A DNA stretch of 33,147 bases, taken from IMG/VR virus record IMGVR_UViG_2630968543_000006; one strand, given 5' to 3'. This DNA comes from a virus. Taxonomy: Duplodnaviria > Heunggongvirae > Uroviricota > Caudoviricetes. Shown here one piece after another: positions 91 through 8,913 of the stretch. The stretch's first letter is position 1, and every line of letters begins with the position of its first letter. A program made the position numbers and the translations under genes. The notes below the pieces were generated by a model that ran no database searches, was not told the origin of the DNA, and worked only from the letters and a program-made list of their open reading frames with translations.

Positions 91-250
91 TTAGTATAAA
101 AAAGCTGAACGCGAAACATTAAAAACCATTAATATCAATGTGTTACAATATCTTTAGTCTAAAAAATAGACTACATGATGCTACAAAACACAACATATCC
201 AGTCACTATGAATCAACTACTTAGATAGTATTAGTGACCTGAGACAGAGC
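91..250 (-). other. attR: attR (P-O-B'): 15-bp core at 91-105 plus lambda-like P arm with Int arm-type sites
   Basis: Plus 91-105 ttagtataaaaaagc is the reverse complement of the lambda core GCTTTTTTATACTAA. The adjacent 106-250 resembles the lambda attP P arm, with arm-type motifs agtcactatg (about 201-210) and tattagtgacctg (about 229-241). Confidence 0.85.
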
Positions 251-291: not shown

Positions 292-638
292 GTTATCAAA
301 CATGTCGCACTCCAGAGAAGCACAAAGCCTTGCAATCCAGTGCAAAGATTTGTGTGCCTCAGTTTTGTCTAAGTGTTCTACTGAAAACATAGTAAAATCG
401 GCAACAGCTGGAAATCATTCAATACTCGCACTATCGAAAGTTCACCAGCCAACCGCAGCACGTTCTTGCATACAACGTGCTGCGGCATAATCCCAATGAT
501 TACTCCCTGACAGGGTTCGTAGGCCACTCAATATCAGGTGCAGTTGATGTATCAACACGGTTCAGCAACACCCGATACTTCTTCCAGGCTTCCAGCAACG
601 AGGTTTCTTCCTCCGTTGCATATACAGCTCACCTTTTT

Positions 639-938
639 TCACCCACGATTAACCAACAGCCAGACCAGCAGACACGCCACCACCGGCACAGAAAAATCCA
701 TCAGGCTTGCCACATCCCAAGCTCGCGGATCAAAACCGCCCCACCACGGCATATTCATTCGCTTGCCATGCCCGAACATTTCAATCCAGCGATATTCTGC
801 CTGGGTATGTTCACGCGCAATGAAGAACGTACAACCGGCTATCGCTCCGTAAGCCCAGTTTCCGGTAAAAAGACCAACCAGTACCTGCGCAGCCACAGCA
901 CAAAGTGCATGAAGGAAAGGTGTTATATCCATTTTCAT
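639..938 (-). CDS. Small inner-membrane protein of unknown function (about 3 predicted TM helices), last gene before attR
   Basis: Track ORF 639..947 (TTG at 947; ATG codons at 938 and 932). Hydrophobic segments FLHALCAVAAQVLVGLF, WAYGAIAGCTFFIA and FSVPVVACLLVWLLV. No family recognised. Confidence 0.55.
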   Translation of the reverse strand: MKMDITPFLHALCAVAAQVLVGLFTGNWAYGAIAGCTFFIAREHTQAEYRWIEMFGHGKRMNMPWWGGFDPRAWDVASLMDFSVPVVACLLVWLLVNRG

Positions 939-974: not shown

Positions 975-2015
975 TTATTTAGACGCAAGCGCCGCCTCAA
1001 TTGCAGATAATCTTTGTCTTAATTCTGCGTTTTCTTCTTCCAGTGCTGTTATTCTGTCGTCTGACTCTCTGGCTACCTGAACAAGCAAGCCAGTAACACC
1101 AGAATAATCTACTGTGTAATAACGTTCACCTTCTTCACCTTCCGATCCGCTCGCACCGTCCTGATATTTCATTGCGGAACCTACAACTTCTGGGATTGCT
1201 TCCAGAGCTTCCTGTGCAATGACACCAGCATAGGGCATACCGTTTTCTTTAAGCGTGTATGTATAGCCGTTCATTTTACGGATGCGGTCGGTTGCATTAT
1301 CGATCACCTGAATGTTGTCTTTCAGATCCCGGTCGGAATGCTGGTTAAATGCGGTGGCATGACATGCACCATTAACGCTTAACATATAGGTGTTATCGGT
1401 ATTTTTCTGCGCATAGAACATATAAGCGCCACCATCAACACCGACTTCATAAACAACAGGACGGCTGGAGTTGCCCCACAATTGAGCAGTAACACCAGCA
1501 TAAGCGGTTCCCTGTGTGTTTAATGTCATGGTTGACCCATGATTGGCATATTTGATCTGTAATGTGTCGGTGTAATCAAATTTAATAAGCGCGTTACTTC
1601 CACGCTTGCTGTATGACATAAGGCAGTTACCCATTTTGAGGTATCCGCTGTCACCGGGAAAAATCATCGTACCGCCATAAAGGTTGGTAAAGTCCCAGCA
1701 AATGTTTGTCCCGTTATCGTTCAGGTTAAGGCGCGCCATTGCGTTACCTGGACTGTCTATCCATTTTTTGAGGTATAGTTCGCAATACGCATCCTCAACA
1801 CCTGCCGTCCTGTGAGTTGAGCGGAGTTTTCTCCCAAATATAGCTCCGCTAGTTGGCAATACCTGCTGATACCATGAAACAGACCAGTCACCAACGATTT
1901 CATCTTTGCTGTCTACATATAATTTTGTTGCGTAGCTTCCTTGATCGTTTTTTAATTTGCTAACGTCGGATTTTAGCGTTTTGATGTCATCAGGAATTAC
2001 TGTCGATGTAGCCAT
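975..2015 (-). CDS. Tail fibre / tailspike-like protein with C-terminal intramolecular chaperone (peptidase S74-like) domain
   Basis: 346-aa ORF with GAGGA ribosome-binding site upstream. C-terminal motifs NQHSDRDLKDNIQVIDNA...YAGVIAQEALEAIPEVV and a terminal coiled-coil (ITALEEENAELRQRLSAIEAALASK) are typical of the endosialidase-chaperone domain. N-terminal ~220 aa unrecognised. Confidence 0.6.
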   Translation of the reverse strand: MATSTVIPDDIKTLKSDVSKLKNDQGSYATKLYVDSKDEIVGDWSVSWYQQVLPTSGAIFGRKLRSTHRTAGVEDAYCELYLKKWIDSPGNAMARLNLNDNGTNICWDFTNLYGGTMIFPGDSGYLKMGNCLMSYSKRGSNALIKFDYTDTLQIKYANHGSTMTLNTQGTAYAGVTAQLWGNSSRPVVYEVGVDGGAYMFYAQKNTDNTYMLSVNGACHATAFNQHSDRDLKDNIQVIDNATDRIRKMNGYTYTLKENGMPYAGVIAQEALEAIPEVVGSAMKYQDGASGSEGEEGERYYTVDYSGVTGLLVQVARESDDRITALEEENAELRQRLSAIEAALASK

Positions 2016-2024
2016 TTTTCTTCC

Positions 2025-2306
2025 TCACATCCAGCCACGAAGTTGATGCTCAACAGCAACCACGTATTCATCGAATAATGACGATATTTGCGAATCATTA
2101 ATGATGCGCACGTTTACAAAATATCCGTCTTCCTTAACACATACCGGTTCGCCATCTTCAGTCAGTTCTCCGGTTTCTTTGTACACATTACCTATCACGT
2201 CAATAAGAATATCATCCTGCATCGACTCGTCATCATAATAGCCAATGCTCTCCATAAAGGCCGAAAAGTCGACCCTGTCTGCAAATTTGAGTGTTAAATC
2301 TTTCAT
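2025..2306 (-). CDS. Acidic 93-aa hypothetical protein in the tfa position (possible fibre assembly/chaperone factor)
   Basis: Start overlaps the stf stop (ATGA), implying translational coupling. Acidic composition. No similarity to lambda Tfa recognised. Confidence 0.5.
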   Translation of the reverse strand: MKDLTLKFADRVDFSAFMESIGYYDDESMQDDILIDVIGNVYKETGELTEDGEPVCVKEDGYFVNVRIINDSQISSLFDEYVVAVEHQLRGWM

Positions 2307-4702
2307 TTAATACTCTCCCCCATTTGCGCATCAGTTAATTCTTTATGCCAGAGACGAAGATTTCTCAAATGGCCGAATAGATGACGAGTTCCCGATGTGG
2401 CTTGACCTCCAATTCGAATAAAGGTCCGTGTTTTTACGCCCGTCCACTCCGTTTTCATAGTTTTAGTAGCCTCACCGTTAGAAACTACTCGTTTAGTACC
2501 ATCAGAATAAATATTAAAACCACCAATGAATTTTCGAACATCAGTTCGACCAGCAAACACACTAGAAACGTAAGTACTTGTCGACGCTTTATAAGTTTGC
2601 ATATAAAGCTGACCGTAATATTTCTCAGTTGTGTTAAAAGCGTATGTAATTGACTCAATAGGTGGCACACCAGAAAAATCAAAAATACGCGGTGCTACAT
2701 TAGGAGGAATATCGCCCCAATTTCTATTAACCTCGACAAGACACGTAAGCGGTCTATTATAGATATTATTTTCAGTTGGGATCGTCACCATATCACTGGA
2801 GCGGGTTGCGGGTGCAGTTGTCGTAATAACAAAAGATGAAGCACATCCGCCGTTTTCAAATTGTGGTGTTGCAAGGTAAATATAATCTCCCGCTTCAGTT
2901 ATACCACCTTTTTTCGGCGCATACTGAATCATTGCGCCAATTAAGGTTTCACCTTCAACAGCTTCTATAGTTGCCTCATAGAAAATCCACCCTGTAACCG
3001 GATCTTTAGTTGCAGTAGCTGCTATTCTATTGGCTGCTCCGCCAGTTTTTTCTATTATCAGAGTTCCGAAAGTTAAATAAGCATCTCCTAAAAATGTATA
3101 AACCGACCCATCGTATTTTTCAAAACGCAAACGACAACGAAGACCATCAGGAGCTTTAACCCTGCATGAAACAGTGCAATACTTATTATCGCCACTAACA
3201 TCAATCCCCCGGGATGCACTGCATGTATGCAGACTAAGTGCAGATGATTGTCCTGTCATATTATCTTTTGTTCGCATTTTGGCATATGAAAAACCAAATT
3301 CATCAACACCATTATTAGTTTTATCGATATTGCTGGTACTCGTCCATTCAGCGGGAGTATTGGATTTAACAAAATAGTTAGTGCGCTGTCCTTCAATCAA
3401 TAAACCTTCTTTTTCAAATCGTGGCTCATCAATTTTAGCAACACTAAATACGCCTGATTTATTGATATATGTGGCAGTTGATGCGCGTTTAAACTTAACA
3501 ACCTTGTCGCCAGGCATCGTTATTTCATCATCACCAATAACAATTTTTTTATATGACGGCGAAAAGCCCGTAATCATATCCAGTGAATCGTTAAACGGTA
3601 TCCACACATCAGGCAGTGGCTGTAAGACATATTTATACGGCTCTGCTGCCTGACTTGCATACTCTCTGGCTGCGTCTTCACTTGCTTTAGCTGCTGTCTG
3701 GCTTGCTGCCGATGCTTTCGCCGAGTTCGCCGCTGCAGTCTCGCTTGTCTTTGCATTGGTTTCACTGGTTTTTGCCGCTTTTTGACTGTTGGCTGATGCA
3801 GTGGCAGAAGCAGCCGCCGCGCTTGCAGAACCAGCTGCCGCGCTCTCGCTTTGGGCTGCTGCAACCTGGCTGTTTTTCGCCGCAGTTTCGCTGGCTTTGG
3901 CATTCGTTTCGCTGGTCTTCGCTGCCGTCTGGCTGGACTTTGCGTTAGTTTCACTCGTCTTCGCAGCTTTCTGGCTGTTAGCCGCAGCAGTTGCTGATCC
4001 AGCTGCTGAAGTCGCAGAACCGGCTGCCGCGCTCTCGCTTTGGGCTGCTGCAACCTGGCTGTTTTTTGCCGCAGTTTCACTGGCTTTGGCATTCGTTTCG
4101 CTGGTTTTCGCTGCCGTCTGGCTGGACTTTGCGTTGGTTTCGCTCGTCTTTGCGGCTGTCTCGCTATTTTTCGCGTTGGTTTCTGATTTTTTGGCTGCTG
4201 TCGCGGAGTTTTCTGATGCAGTCTGTGAGGTCGCTGCCGCCTGTGCACTATTAGCTGCATTCGTTTCTGAGGTTTTCGCCGCGTTCTTCGATGATGCCGC
4301 TGCAGTTTCGGATTTCTTTGCCGCCGCTGCGCTCTGAGAGGCGGCTTCGGCGTTGCGTGCCGCTTCTTCCACCATTTCCTCAAAACGACGCAATGCCTCC
4401 GGCATGACATCATCTTCCGTCATGGCACCGAGAAAATCATTCAGCGTACCTGGTCTGGAACCTTCATAGACGGTAATGGTTCCGGCATGTGAAGGCGGAA
4501 AACCTTCAACAAGCAGGATAACGCTGTACTGGCCATACTCAACATCCATGCTGTAACGCCCGGCTTCATCCGGATTTTCAGAGGCCACCGTGTTCACCAG
4601 TACCGTGGTGCTGTTACGCTTTGCCTTCAGTTGAATAGTGCAGTTCTGTATTGGTTTTCCCGCACCATCTTTCAGCACACCTGAGATTTTTACTGCTGCC
4701 AT
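2303..4702 (-). CDS. stf: Side tail fibre protein Stf (lambda-like N-terminus, Ala/Ser/Thr-rich repeat shaft, non-lambda C-terminal receptor-binding region)
   Basis: N-terminus MAAVKISGVLKDGAGKPIQNCTIQLKAKRNSTTV...GRYSMDVEYGQYSVILLVEGFPPSHAGTITVYE is near-identical to lambda Stf. ATG at 4702 (track GTG at 4708). Internal AKTSETNAK repeats. C-terminal ~400 aa unlike lambda Stf as I recall it. Confidence 0.85.
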   Translation of the reverse strand: MAAVKISGVLKDGAGKPIQNCTIQLKAKRNSTTVLVNTVASENPDEAGRYSMDVEYGQYSVILLVEGFPPSHAGTITVYEGSRPGTLNDFLGAMTEDDVMPEALRRFEEMVEEAARNAEAASQSAAAAKKSETAAASSKNAAKTSETNAANSAQAAATSQTASENSATAAKKSETNAKNSETAAKTSETNAKSSQTAAKTSETNAKASETAAKNSQVAAAQSESAAAGSATSAAGSATAAANSQKAAKTSETNAKSSQTAAKTSETNAKASETAAKNSQVAAAQSESAAAGSASAAAASATASANSQKAAKTSETNAKTSETAAANSAKASAASQTAAKASEDAAREYASQAAEPYKYVLQPLPDVWIPFNDSLDMITGFSPSYKKIVIGDDEITMPGDKVVKFKRASTATYINKSGVFSVAKIDEPRFEKEGLLIEGQRTNYFVKSNTPAEWTSTSNIDKTNNGVDEFGFSYAKMRTKDNMTGQSSALSLHTCSASRGIDVSGDNKYCTVSCRVKAPDGLRCRLRFEKYDGSVYTFLGDAYLTFGTLIIEKTGGAANRIAATATKDPVTGWIFYEATIEAVEGETLIGAMIQYAPKKGGITEAGDYIYLATPQFENGGCASSFVITTTAPATRSSDMVTIPTENNIYNRPLTCLVEVNRNWGDIPPNVAPRIFDFSGVPPIESITYAFNTTEKYYGQLYMQTYKASTSTYVSSVFAGRTDVRKFIGGFNIYSDGTKRVVSNGEATKTMKTEWTGVKTRTFIRIGGQATSGTRHLFGHLRNLRLWHKELTDAQMGESIK
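3825..4202. repeat. Tandem direct duplication, 2 x 189 bp (63 codons), inside stf
   Basis: The block starting gcagaacc(a/g)gctgccgcgctctcgctttgggctgctgcaacctggctg occurs at 3825 and again at 4014, near-identical for about 135-150 bp. Shorter related repeats span about 3690-4330. Confidence 0.8.
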
Positions 4703-4712
4703 ATCCACTCCA

Positions 4713-4740
4713 CAAAAAAGCCCGCCTGAACCGGCGGGCT
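4713..4740 (-). terminator. Rho-independent terminator between lom and stf
   Basis: 8-bp stem agcccgcc (4719-4726) / ggcgggct (4733-4740) with a plus-strand A6 run at 4714-4719, giving a U-tract after the hairpin on the minus strand. Confidence 0.6.
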
Positions 4741-4766: not shown

Positions 4767-5366
4767 TCAGAATTTATAACCGACACCCACGATGAAACCG
4801 TCAGTGCGCCAGTCACCACTGCCGGAACCTTCATAAGCAAGGTCAATGGCCACGGATTCGGTCGGGTTAAACTGCACGCCAGCCCCCCACGCCAGAGACG
4901 TGTTGCTGTGGCGACCGTCATCACTTCCGGTCAGCACATCGTGCGTTTTCCCCTTGTTGTCAGTTACGCGGAGATAATCCCCGGAGAAGGTCGACACACG
5001 GCTGTAAGCCATACCCGCCATCGCATAAGCACTGAACCATTCATTCACGCGTACAGATGGCCCCGCCATCATGCTGAACCAGCGGTTACGCACGGAATCT
5101 TCATGCCAGCGGGTATCGCTGTAATGCGTTTTTTGCTCATCTTTGGCATTGGCATAACTGAATGACGTCACCAGCCCCAGCGTGTCCGTAAATTCATAAC
5201 GGTATTTCACGTTAATGCCCTTCAGGTCATCACTGCCTGGCATATCAGTATGGGTCTGAAGATACCCGGCGCTTAGTGTGGACTGATGCTCTGCTGCGCT
5301 CGCTGGCGTACCAGCGGCAACCAGCCAGACTACTGCGGACAGAATAACAGCACATAATTTACGCAT
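4767..5366 (-). CDS. lom: Lom outer-membrane protein (Ail/Lom/OmpX family beta-barrel)
   Basis: 199 aa with signal peptide MRKLCAVILSAVVWLVAAGTPASA and C-terminal ...GVGYKF. Matches lambda Lom by recall and sits between J and stf as in lambda. Confidence 0.9.
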   Translation of the reverse strand: MRKLCAVILSAVVWLVAAGTPASAAEHQSTLSAGYLQTHTDMPGSDDLKGINVKYRYEFTDTLGLVTSFSYANAKDEQKTHYSDTRWHEDSVRNRWFSMMAGPSVRVNEWFSAYAMAGMAYSRVSTFSGDYLRVTDNKGKTHDVLTGSDDGRHSNTSLAWGAGVQFNPTESVAIDLAYEGSGSGDWRTDGFIVGVGYKF

Positions 5367-5433
5367 AATTACCTCTCGCTTTTCTGCAATAAAAAAGGCG
5401 TCATTTCTGACGCCCGTATTGGGGTTATAAAAT

Positions 5434-8400
5434 TCAGCTGATACTGATGCCTGCGGTGGCTTTCTTCATCACCACAACCAGCAAATCGCTGATACTTGCT
5501 GTGGGATACCAGTCATTTACCAGCCATGCTGACACCGAAAACTCCAGCGTCATGTGACCGTGACCGGCAGGCATATCAATAACGCCACTGTAAATCAGCG
5601 TATTATCCAGCGCGGTACGGTTATAAATTTCAGCACCGTTTTTCCGCACTATCAGACGGCATGAGGAGTAAATATCAGTATGCTCTCTCTCATGTTTAGC
5701 GCCGCTGAATGCCACCGCCGGAATAACAATCTGCCGGTCAAACGGCTGATCGTCATAAATCCTGACGGTAATGGTCCCTGATGGCCACCGTTCCGGTGCA
5801 CGGGAGTCCCGGGGGAAAGCTTTGCCCACTGTTTTAACGAGATCGCCTTCAATCTGGTTCGCGGACAGTTTTCCCAGAACCCGGCAGTTCTCGTTAATCG
5901 TGACGTTGTTGAGCGTCCCGGAGTTCGCATTCACGTTACCGCTGATATCGGCATTTTTCGCCGTCAGCCGCCCGTCCGGTGTCAGGGAAAATGCCGGAGG
6001 ATTACCGCCGCTGGTAATGGTGGGAGCCGTCAGATATTTCAGGAACACTTCATTCATAAATATCTGATCGCCCTGACCAACAAACATCGGCTTTGTGTTG
6101 CCATTCGCAGGATTAACCATCGCAATCCTGTCCGCCGCCAGCAGCACCTGACTCTGCATGCCGTCAGGGGTGTTCTCAATACCGGCACCAATACCCGCGA
6201 TATAAAGGCGTCCGTCCTGCATCTGCTGCAGCTTCACAGCCCACATGCTGTTCAGGTTATTATTTGTATCAACCTGAACCTTCTGTATCTGCTGAATTGC
6301 CGCACTCTGGTCTTCCAGTTTCTTATTGACGGTCTGCGTGATTTCATTGCTGACATCCGTAATGGACGTCCTGATTTCAGCCAGGTCAGGCGCAAGCTGA
6401 CCGTTATCAATCTGCGTCCACAGCTCCTGAGCCAGATGGCTTTTCCCTATCTCGCCTTTGAAAAAATCCAGATAGCCGGATGCATCATCACTCGGCTGGC
6501 CAACAGCCTCCACAAATGCCGATTTGCCAACGGTGTTCACACTGCGGATGTAAAAATAATAATCATGGCCCGGTTTGATATTGATACTGGCAGCTATCCA
6601 GTACAGCGCCGTGCCAAGATAGCGGGCTGTGGTTTCAACCTGCCTGATATCCGCAATCCGCTTTTCCGAGAACCAGAACTCAAACTGTACCGTCGGATCA
6701 TAAACGGCAAGATGGGGCGTGGCGGTTATCTGAAAATAGCCCGGCGTCAGCTCAATCCGCGACGGCGCTGCCGGTGCGGCAATACGGAACGATACCGATG
6801 CCGGATCGCCCTGCTGCCCCCAGGCATTTGCCGCCCGGACTGTCAGCCTGTAGTTTCCCAGCGCCAGTTGCGTGAAGCGGTATGTGGTTTCCGTCGTCCG
6901 GGCCGTGCTGACCAGCCGCTCACTGCCGTCATCCGCTGCCACGGTCAGGCGAAGCAGGAAGCTCACGCCCTTCACCACCTTCGGTGTGTCCCATCGCGCC
7001 AGCACCTGATATTCCCCGCTGTCTGCAGTGACTTCTGCGGTCAGGTGCTGCACCGCTGGCGGCGTGACACCATTCACCGTGCCACTCTGTTCGCCGTCAA
7101 AGTGCGCCCCGTTATCCACGATGGCCTCTTTTTCCGGCACATGCTGCACGGCGGTGATGGCATACGTGCCGTCGTCGTTCTCACGGATACTCACGCAGCG
7201 GAACAGTCGCTGGCGCAGCGTCGGCAGCTTCAGCCCCCATACGCTGTATTCAGCAACACCGTCAGGAACACGGCTCACTTTTACCTTCACGCCGTCGGTG
7301 ACGGACTGAACCTCCACGCTGACCGGACTCCCCTGCCCGTCAACCAGGCTTATCAGCGTGGTGCCGGAAGATGGCAGCGTGATTTCACGGTCGAGCGTCA
7401 GCGTCCGGGTCTGGCTGTTTACCGCCAGCACGCGCCCGCCGGTGCTGATACCGGCATAGTCATCATCGCAGATTTCAATGACATCGCCCGGTACATGGCG
7501 AAGCCCTTCGGCACCCACGCTGAAGTCCACGGTCTGCGTTTCCAGCAGTTCTGTTTTAATCAGCCACAGCCCGGCGCGGTGTGCCTGCCCCCGGCTGGTA
7601 CAGCCAAAAGCATCCATCTTCGTGACGTTACGACCGTAACGGGCAATGGCCTGCGTGTCCTCCACAAGCTCTGTCGCCGTCTCCCAGCCGTTGTTCGGGT
7701 CAATCCAGTTCACCTCAACGGCATTATGGCGGTCCTTCAGGGCGCTGAAGCTGTAGCGGAACGGCGCGCCATCATCCGACATCACCACATTACTGCGGTT
7801 ATAGGTCCACACCTTATCTGATGGCCGGTCCTGCACGAACGTCAGCGTCTGCCCGTTCCATACCGGCATACAGCGCATCGCCGAGCAGAAATCACTGAGC
7901 ACATCCCACGCCTTGCGCTGTGTGGTCAGGTACGCATTACAGGTGATGCGCGGCTCCGTGCCGCCAAAGCCGTCCGGCACTGACTGGTCGCAGTACTGGC
8001 CGATGACATACAGCGCCCATTTATCCACATCCGCCGCACCAAGACGTTTCCCCATGCCGTAGCGCGGATGGGTCAGCATATCCCACAGACACCAGGCCAT
8101 GTTGTTGCTGTATGCTGGCTTAAACGTTCCGTCCCAGATACCGCTGTATTGCCGCGTCTGCGGGTTATAGTTCGACGGCACCTGCAGAATGCGCCCGCGC
8201 AGATGATAATTACGGCTCACCTGCTGGCTGCCGAACTGCTCCGAATCCACCTGCACGCCGACCAGTGCCGTGTTCGGGTAGCACTGTTTCACATCGATGA
8301 TTTCGGTGTATGACGACCAGAGCGTTTTGTTCTGCAGCTGGTCTGTGGTGCTGTCCGGCGTCATCCTGCGCATCCGTATATTGAACGGGCGCGGCGGCAG

Positions 8401-8913
8401 GTTACCCACCACCACCGAGGCCAGATACTGCGAGGTGGTTTTGCCCTTAATGGTGATGTCTTTTTCCGTCACCCAGCCACCATTACGCTGTATCTGAACC
8501 AGCAGACGGACTTCCGACGGATTCCTGTCACCCTTTGAGGTGGTTTCCACCAGTGCCTGTACACCGAAGGTAAAGCGCAGACGGTCGATGTTTGCCGACG
8601 TAATGGTGCGGGTGATCGGCGTGTCATATTTCACTTCCGTACCCAGCACCGTCTCGGAGCCGGAGGATTCAAATCCCTCCGGCGGTGACTGCTCCTGCTC
8701 ACCTGCCCGGAACACCACCGTGACGCCGGATATATTGGTATTCCCCTCACTGTCCAGCACCGGCGTACTGTTCAGCAGCACGCTTTTTAATCCATCCACC
8801 GGACCTTCAATCGGCCCTTCGCTGATGGCATCAATCACACTCAGCAGCTGCGTGGATTTCAGGTTGTCCTTCGCTTCGCGCGGGGTATGCCCCTTACTGC
8901 TGCCTTTACCCAT
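5434..8913 (-). CDS. J: Tail tip / host specificity protein J
   Basis: 1159 aa; N-terminus [44 protein letters not shown] matches lambda gpJ over long stretches; lambda position. Confidence 0.95.

Follow-up and report, generated by a model that had tools for sequence, protein, structure and literature searches.

A three-gene side tail fiber unit in a lambdoid prophage

The viral DNA analyzed here, called the window throughout, is IMG/VR record IMGVR_UViG_2630968543_000006 at its full length of 33,147 nucleotides (nt), and this report concerns the genes for a side tail fiber that it carries. On the minus strand, the genes follow the order J (5434-8913), lom (4767-5366), an stf-like gene (2303-4708), an open reading frame (ORF) for an acidic protein of 93 residues (2025-2306), an ORF for a protein of 346 residues (975-2015), and a gene for a membrane protein (639-947). 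An identical copy in Escherichia coli strain 582 adjoins ybhB and the bio operon, where the lambda attachment site lies; the element is a lambdoid prophage integrated at this site.

The stop codon of stf overlaps the start codon of the 93-residue ORF in ATGA, an arrangement for translational coupling. The stop codon of the 93-residue ORF, TGA, lies inside a GAGGAAG ribosome-binding site, and the ATG of the 346-residue gene follows 9 nt on. A first-pass annotation, made from the sequence alone, had described a coupled acidic ORF and a 346-residue ORF at these positions, and both were borne out; the smaller product has an isoelectric point (pI) of 4.05, with 21 Asp and Glu residues against 7 Lys and Arg. 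Because each product matches a PHROG over its full length (phrog_4563 with E 7e-221 for the larger, phrog_1361 with E 9e-46 for the smaller), the ORFs are judged to be real genes and not chance ORFs. RefSeq names them "hypothetical protein" (93 residues) and "tail fiber domain-containing protein" (346 residues).

Two terminator-like hairpins on the minus strand, one between lom and stf (4740-4719) and one directly 3' of the 346-residue gene (968-954, GGGGCCGAGCGCCCC and then GTTTTATT), enclose exactly the stf, 93-residue, and 346-residue genes, and mark the upstream and downstream borders of the unit. The best explanation, which taken as a whole we hold to be probable though far from settled, is that the three genes are transcribed together as one late unit and that their products build a side tail fiber of two segments.

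The 93- and 346-residue ORFs share one frame, separated by TGA and 9 nt (2013-2027, minus strand), and in one case, metagenomic fragment P0148, TGG replaces TGA and fuses them. Programmed read-through from one into the other was considered and rejected, the shared frame being incidental: other lineages have TAA, and some have spacers of 2 or 11 nt.

The proximal fiber and its head

The putative proximal side tail fiber, here called Stf, has 801 residues when read from the GTG at 4708, while its RefSeq homologs begin at the ATG at 4702 and have 799. It consists of a lambda-type N-terminal tail-attachment domain, a shaft of heptads rich in Ala, Ser, Thr, and Lys, and a C-terminal head of ~430 residues. 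Pfam model PF08400, the prophage tail fiber N-terminal domain, matches residues 5-134 (E 6e-67), the N-terminus aligns to that of lambda Stf in the lambda tail structure PDB 9e7m (E 1.6e-49), and phrog_1419 matches over the full length. The coding region for the shaft shows a 21-nt (heptad) periodicity at 3669-4321 on the minus strand. It also contains a 189-nt tandem duplication, 3731-3919 against 3920-4108 at 84% identity, and this repeat could alter fiber length through unequal recombination.

The head comprises residues 364-801 (2306-3619, minus strand) and begins PLPDVWIPFNDSL. NCBIfam model GTA_spike_fiber matches residues 437-637, and a profile of ten heads, compared with PDB, found Rcc01080 in entry 6tb9 (E 1.8e-15); by these matches, the first part of the head is homologous to the head-spike fiber of RcGTA, the Rhodobacter gene transfer agent. 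The homologous head of Gp22 of phage IrisVonRoten has been described as galectin-like (PMC11990801). The Stf head is of a non-lambda, lectin-like or sugar-binding type. The ten heads come from very different phages, average 63% column identity, and are 39-58% identical to the window head. Their end is conserved as IRIGGQ..RHLFGH.RN.R.WHK.LTD.Q, and Stf ends in a head of this kind, running from PLPDVWIPFNDSL to RHLFGH.RNFRIWHK. The variable body of the head is likely a first receptor-binding region.

The 346-residue protein

Peptidase_S74 (PF13884) matches residues 227-278 of the 346-residue protein, at its C-terminal end, with a score of 52.8 bits against a curated cut-off of 22 (E 4.8e-14), so the self-cleaving, chaperone-type domain proposed in the first-pass annotation is present; a Pfam search found no S74 domain in Stf. 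Residues 215-327 align to S16 gp37 (PDB 6f45). Ser227 and Lys232, in HSDRDLK, have the spacing of the S74 catalytic dyad, and SDRDLK is near-invariant in an alignment of 26 sequences. The AlphaFold2 (AF2) model has a long C-terminal helix at residues 303-344. On the strength of profile, dyad, and helix, residues 227-346 (978-1337, minus strand) are assigned as an intramolecular chaperone domain. Autocleavage is predicted between His226 and Ser227, which would leave a mature subunit of 226 residues and 24.9 kDa. By analogy with K1F endosialidase, T5 pb1, and the fibers of DT57C (PMC4728585), the C-terminal 120 residues should drive folding of the trimer and then be cut off.

Column variability among nine alleles of the protein marks two patches on the minus strand, residues ~32-106 (~1698-1922) and residues ~197-226 (1338-1427), the latter directly before the predicted cleavage site. 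A local dip in identity to the virulent Nonagvirus vB_EcoS_ESCO3 (ESCO3) occurs at window positions 1420-1520. Fibers of the S74 type usually bear the binding tip just before the cleavage site. Because residues ~197-226 are variable and occupy this usual position, they are likely the receptor-binding tip.

The 93-residue protein as a partner of the head

The 93-residue protein has no sequence match in Pfam, NCBIfam, or PDB, and none to Caudo_TAP in particular. Its structure model is confident and has an alpha/beta fold, unlike Tfa; a fold search with the model returned only generic alpha/beta matches in PDB and uncharacterized phage proteins in BFVD. Likeness to known fiber chaperones (Tfa/Caudo_TAP, T4 gp38, gp57A) was found neither by sequence nor by fold. 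The family is small, with 49 representatives among 1.84 billion proteins, all of ~90 residues, and its conserved features are an N-terminal MKDLTLKF, the motifs D.IG..Y and DGYFVN.R, and a C-terminal P.R.W. A fusion ("Rosetta stone") clue to its role was sought and discarded: all 49 representatives stand alone, and two long matches in multiple stretches were read as low-complexity acidic sequence.

Homologs occur in 181 phage records, and each annotated one that was checked lies directly 3' of a fiber gene with this head, with the ~92-residue reading frame abutting or overlapping the fiber stop codon, as in the window. The annotated carriers belong to at least six phage groups: lambdoid phages including phage 21, T1-like Drexlerviridae, Dhillonvirus, Nonagvirus, T5-like phages, and rV5-like myoviruses, the last with a longer form. 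Searches of IMG/VR used single 93-residue sequences, the family profile being too variable for scanning. All 78 informative IMG/VR loci with the window-type 93-residue gene carry a third gene, of the 346-residue type or of a 234-residue type, and so does one further locus, L146. No third fiber gene follows the pair of head and small gene in phage 21, in ev243, or in the rV5-like phage naswa; in the phage-21-type clade it is absent from 45 of 45 informative IMG/VR loci, where the gene for the 97-residue membrane protein comes directly after. By sequence comparison, then, the pair recurs in lambdoid, T1-like, T5-like, 9g-like, Dhillonvirus, and rV5-like phages with the third gene sometimes absent; wherever the head is found the small protein accompanies it, and the 93-residue protein is a partner of the Stf head, not of the 346-residue protein. 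The first-pass annotation had not seen this pairing with a non-lambda head.

A conserved N-terminal motif on third-gene products

The 346-residue protein begins with a motif, MATSTVIPDDIKTLKSD (residues 1-17; 1965-2015, minus strand), that is common to the products of other third genes. Residues 9-24 are predicted, in the AF2 model at low confidence, to form a helix and short coiled coil; in relatives, TLKSDVS-type repeats extend this helix, as would suit a coiled-coil stalk whose length varies. The first ~15-35 residues (MATSTVIPDDIKTLK and onward) are conserved on third-gene products of five phage groups, even where the remainder is unrelated. It had been said that the N-terminal part lacks an obvious virion-attachment region; this holds insofar as no known domain lies there, but the conserved segment tells against it.

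Each gene found closely 3' of a 93-residue homolog encodes a product that starts M(A/V)TxTxIPxDIxxLK, and at all loci examined the motif-bearing gene adjoins such a homolog. Motif carriers include the third-gene products of PhiR49_1 (234 residues), KarlJaspers (225 residues), IrisVonRoten (Gp24, 574 residues), and Salmonella phage L6jm (577 residues), those of three metagenomic phages (L006, L008, and L009; 326-338 residues), and KarlBarth gp30, which lacks an S74 domain. Alignment of the 346-residue protein to IrisVonRoten Gp24 covers residues 1-17 and the chaperone domain only. The spacer between the small gene and the third gene is mostly 9-12 nt (9 nt in the window, 11 nt in L006), and 2 nt in KarlJaspers. 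A tblastn search with the first 40 residues found 59 phage records, and where both matches were listed, that to the motif starts roughly 10-20 nt after the end of that to the 93-residue protein. Homologs of the 346-residue protein occur in the same three-gene order in three further phage backgrounds.

In the Dhillonvirus KarlBarth (L094, 3770-4649), the motif gene is seemingly split into overlapping ORFs of 98 and 196 residues, gp30 and gp31, which could reflect a frameshift, a sequencing error, or a genuine two-piece tip.

The T1- and T5-like carriers have tails and shafts unrelated to those of the window, and in ESCO3 the DNA in common with the window is confined to the stretch that opens with the head and closes with the 346-residue gene. 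Because the head and the 93-residue protein are the sole partners that always travel with the third gene, the docking site for the third-gene product should lie in one or the other, to judge from gene content. The conserved N-terminal peptide is a candidate docking peptide, and probably serves as one.

Distribution and mosaicism

Of 5426 complete E. coli genomes, 519 contain the 1332-nt segment that holds the 93- and 346-residue genes at a coverage of 80% or above, so that about one in ten bears the exact module. It occurs in the isolated temperate phages Tritos, HannyBb, 2G7b, and PhiR63_1, and the virulent ESCO3 carries it at ~90% nucleotide identity.

Comparison of the window with Tritos finds 90-100% identity in the Stf N-terminus and shaft, a fall to 33-65% in the head body, and 91-100% again from the last ~40 stf codons through the genes for the 93-, 346-, and 97-residue proteins. 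In Drexlerviridae, the conserved stretch is the 3' end of stf together with the small gene. PhiR49_1 is 97-100% identical to the window over stf, the 93-residue gene, and the first ~15 codons of the third gene, then unrelated, then 93-99% identical again in the 97-residue gene; its third gene is the 234-residue allele, with its own S74 domain. In ev243, the third gene is missing precisely between the same flanks. Given these mosaic breakpoints and the alternative 346- and 234-residue alleles in one slot between conserved flanks, the 346-residue gene is an exchangeable cassette, as the first-pass annotation had allowed. The comparisons further show that the head body and the body of the distal fiber are swapped independently by recombination, while the junction, composed of the last ~40 stf codons, the 93-residue gene, and the 5'-terminal part of the third gene, stays conserved. 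A conserved joint that links two receptor-binding modules, each varying on its own, fits this pattern.

No intact tfa gene (Caudo_TAP, PF02413) stands directly after stf, in agreement with the first-pass annotation; the window holds only a 39-residue Tfa relic at 503-619 on the minus strand, matching Caudo_TAP positions 95-130 of 131 (E 1.7e-17). A lambda-type stf-tfa end was therefore once present here, and has been replaced by the present module. In RefSeq, the stretch homologous to 503-619 is labeled an incomplete tfa pseudogene.

An invertible alternative fiber end of the Mu, P1, or e14 type was considered for the third gene and rejected: the window has neither an invertase nor flanking inverted repeats, and the gene has the same orientation as its neighbors and its own start. 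Tritos (L002, 2222-2812) has a PinR-type invertase gene ~230 nt past the 97-residue gene, perhaps a leftover of an older invertible fiber segment; the module itself is non-invertible.

Relation to known fiber systems

The Gp22-Gp23-Gp24 locus of IrisVonRoten (Bas32), a T5-like phage, has the same three-gene order and coupling, with Gp22 as the proximal fiber, Gp23 of 92 residues, and Gp24 as a T-shaped distal fiber with an intramolecular chaperone (PMC11990801). The head of Gp22 is 52% identical to that of window Stf, Gp23 is 39% identical to the 93-residue protein (E 2e-16), and Gp24 has MVTKTVIPTDITKLK at its start and an S74-type domain at its end. The same paper presents an AlphaFold-Multimer model in which Gp24 is attached to the proximal fiber Gp22, and says nothing of the 92-residue protein (PMC11990801). 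The two systems differ in tail attachment, which is through the LtfC collar in T5-like phages and through the lambda Stf N-terminal domain in the window, and in the distal subunit: Gp24 has two receptor-binding domains, and only the motif and the chaperone domain are common to it and the 346-residue protein. On these alignments the locus is the closest relative of the window module, with all three proteins homologous at least in the parts that define it. IrisVonRoten and JakobBernoulli are the members of their groups that infect K-12 with restored O16 antigen (10.1101/2021.03.08.434280; PMC11990801). Multi-protein lateral fibers have already been recognized in T5-like phages and small siphoviruses (10.1101/2021.03.08.434280), which use such fibers for O-antigen.

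The closest experimentally studied analog is the LtfA and LtfB pair of DT57C and DT571/2 (PMC4728585, PMC10713586), similar in its working but of a different family. As proposed for the window, a second fiber without a tail-attachment domain is borne by the first through a conserved N-terminal segment, and C-terminal S74 domains act as self-cleaving chaperones. The two DT57C subunits provide two O-antigen specificities, and recombination changes specificity. However, S74 domains stand on both DT57C subunits and only on the distal subunit here, and the numbering of ltfA (gp108) and ltfB (gp107) leaves no room for a small protein between them. The DT57C docking segment, by its description related to phiEco32 gp15, would differ from the window motif as well.

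Lambda stf-tfa shares with the window the slot after J and lom, the Stf N-terminal domain recognized by PF08400, and a small coupled gene. The C-terminus of window Stf, however, is not lambda-like, the 93-residue protein has a different fold, and lambda has no second fiber subunit. K1F endosialidase, T5 pb1, and S16 gp37 resemble the 346-residue protein in the PF13884 domain, the Ser/Lys dyad spacing, the C-terminal helix, and a variable tip upstream of the cleavage site, but they are long proteins with virion anchors of their own, whereas the 346-residue protein is short and seems to rely on another fiber. The Eligo preprint on lambda vectors contains nothing on this module. The whole design, in sum, already exists in T1-, T5-, and 9g-like phages, and is found here in a lambdoid setting.

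A probable two-segment fiber and its alternatives

It is fairly likely, in our judgment, that the window encodes a two-segment fiber, homologous to IrisVonRoten Gp22-Gp23-Gp24, in which a second receptor-binding subunit cleaves itself. The 346-residue protein behaves as the second receptor-binding subunit that had been among the first-pass suggestions. It would trimerize, aided by its C-terminal domain, and would cleave its own chain at the His226-Ser227 bond. The distal subunit would use its N-terminal peptide, together with the short coiled coil, to dock on the end of Stf formed by the head and the 93-residue protein. Each side fiber would then show two receptor-binding regions, the head body and the distal tip at residues ~197-226, and from the literature the targets would most likely be O-antigen or lipopolysaccharide glycans.

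Several points weigh against this interpretation. The AF2 monomer model of the 346-residue protein is poor (mean predicted local distance difference test score, pLDDT, 54.7), and a fold search with it found nothing at E 0.001. By inspection of sequences, no residue signature in the 93-residue protein that tracks the presence of a third gene separates the lineages cleanly, and the correlation between the clade of the small gene and third-gene presence is confounded by linkage. The conserved junction could, moreover, be a mere recombination linker rather than an interaction surface.

Within a two-segment fiber, the 93-residue protein would be either an assembly factor of the head or a structural component of the joint. 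A chaperone role in folding or assembly, making it a functional analog but not a homolog of Tfa, is slightly ahead because the protein is kept in phages without a third gene. The structural role, which we entertain only tentatively, would make it a connector that remains part of the virion, seated on the Stf head, and offers a socket for the N-terminal strand of the distal subunit, its own P-x-R-x-W tail anchoring it to the head. A connector would suit the much stronger conservation of this protein than of its head (the window and Tritos share 97% identity in the one and 57% in the other) and a conserved block made up of exactly the stf C-terminus, the 93-residue gene, and the N-terminus of the third gene. 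The conserved, lower-confidence C-terminal tail of the small protein, taken with the beta-strand-like TxTxIP, suggests strand augmentation, a mode of attachment seen for LtfA on LtfC in DT57C (PMC10713586), and the dissimilarity to every known fiber chaperone points the same way. Yet the protein is kept without a third gene in phage 21, ev243, the rV5-like phages, and all 45 loci of the phage-21-type clade, and none of the 49 representatives is fused to a fiber protein.

A bolder form of the connector proposal, speculative and in our view rather doubtful, is that the last ~40 residues of the head, the ~92-residue protein, and M(A/V)TxTxIPxDIxxLK form a universal plug-and-socket joint, the small protein being a new type of connector. 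If true, lambdoid, T1-, T5-, 9g-like, and Dhillonvirus phages could swap distal subunits of different architecture, from S74 fibers of 225-577 residues to non-S74 tips. Our search of the literature found no paper that describes a joint of head, 93-residue protein, and N-terminal peptide, or that gives the small protein a role.

It is improbable that the 346-residue protein is a separate fiber attached elsewhere, whether at the tail tip, on J, or as a side branch of the Stf shaft, instead of at the end of the Stf head. In DT57C, LtfB is believed to leave LtfA as a branch at mid-length (PMC4728585, PMC10713586), a model for such an arrangement. However, the third gene moves between phages in the company of the head and the 93-residue gene alone, into ESCO3 and into T1- and T5-like phages whose tails and shafts are unrelated, with no other partner in common, and the motif gene adjoins a homolog of the small gene at every locus examined.

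Least credible is that the 346-residue ORF is a non-functional leftover, a fiber fragment (as had also been suggested) or a stored cassette that is not assembled: although its residues 132-342 resemble the C-terminus of full-length 1210-residue Stf proteins (phrog_6578), the site, close to a tfa relic, is a hotspot of recombination, and truncated or frameshifted database entries exist, the gene has its own start codon and a ribosome-binding site coupled to the gene upstream, has its full length in a sequence cluster of 2132 members, is intact at most of the 78 loci and in plaque-forming isolated phages, one of them virulent, is under purifying selection (ratio of nonsynonymous to synonymous substitution rates, dN/dS, of 0.12-0.38 against four diverged alleles), has no second copy in the window (nor has the 93-residue gene), and lacks the invertase and flanking inverted repeats of an invertible exon.

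Side and lateral fibers decide which O-antigen-bearing strains a siphovirus reaches, and a lambda-type particle with a swappable second receptor-binding subunit, if the two-segment interpretation holds, helps explain the fiber diversity of E. coli prophages. The module would also provide a docking system of natural origin with which lambda-based delivery particles could be retargeted, Stf, the 93-residue protein, and the first ~20 residues of the distal subunit being retained and the remainder varied.

Neighboring features

Just beyond the terminator of the unit lies the gene for the 97-residue predicted membrane protein (639-932, minus strand; the ORF is callable to 947, giving 102 residues). 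It belongs to phrog_1443, of unknown function, has no Pfam or PADLOC match, and is 93-99% identical where the fiber cassette differs. The gene could be a moron or serve in exclusion. A defense or moron role was considered for the 93-, 346-, and 97-residue proteins alike, and PADLOC gave nothing for any of them. A 49-residue ORF at 378-527 (minus strand) overlaps the tfa relic and has no Pfam match; its RefSeq homologs are named "nucleocapsid protein", a name that looks spurious.

On the other side of the unit, lom has terminator-like hairpins on either side (4719-4740 and 5396-5415, minus strand), the arrangement that would be expected if it were a moron that had entered between J and stf. The lambda att core, as the reverse complement of GCTTTTTTATACTAA, lies at window positions 91-105, and the window begins just past ybhB, judged against strain 582. 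Given this start and the position of the att core, the prophage arm from the fiber genes to the attachment site is less than 900 nt long, far below the lambda b region.

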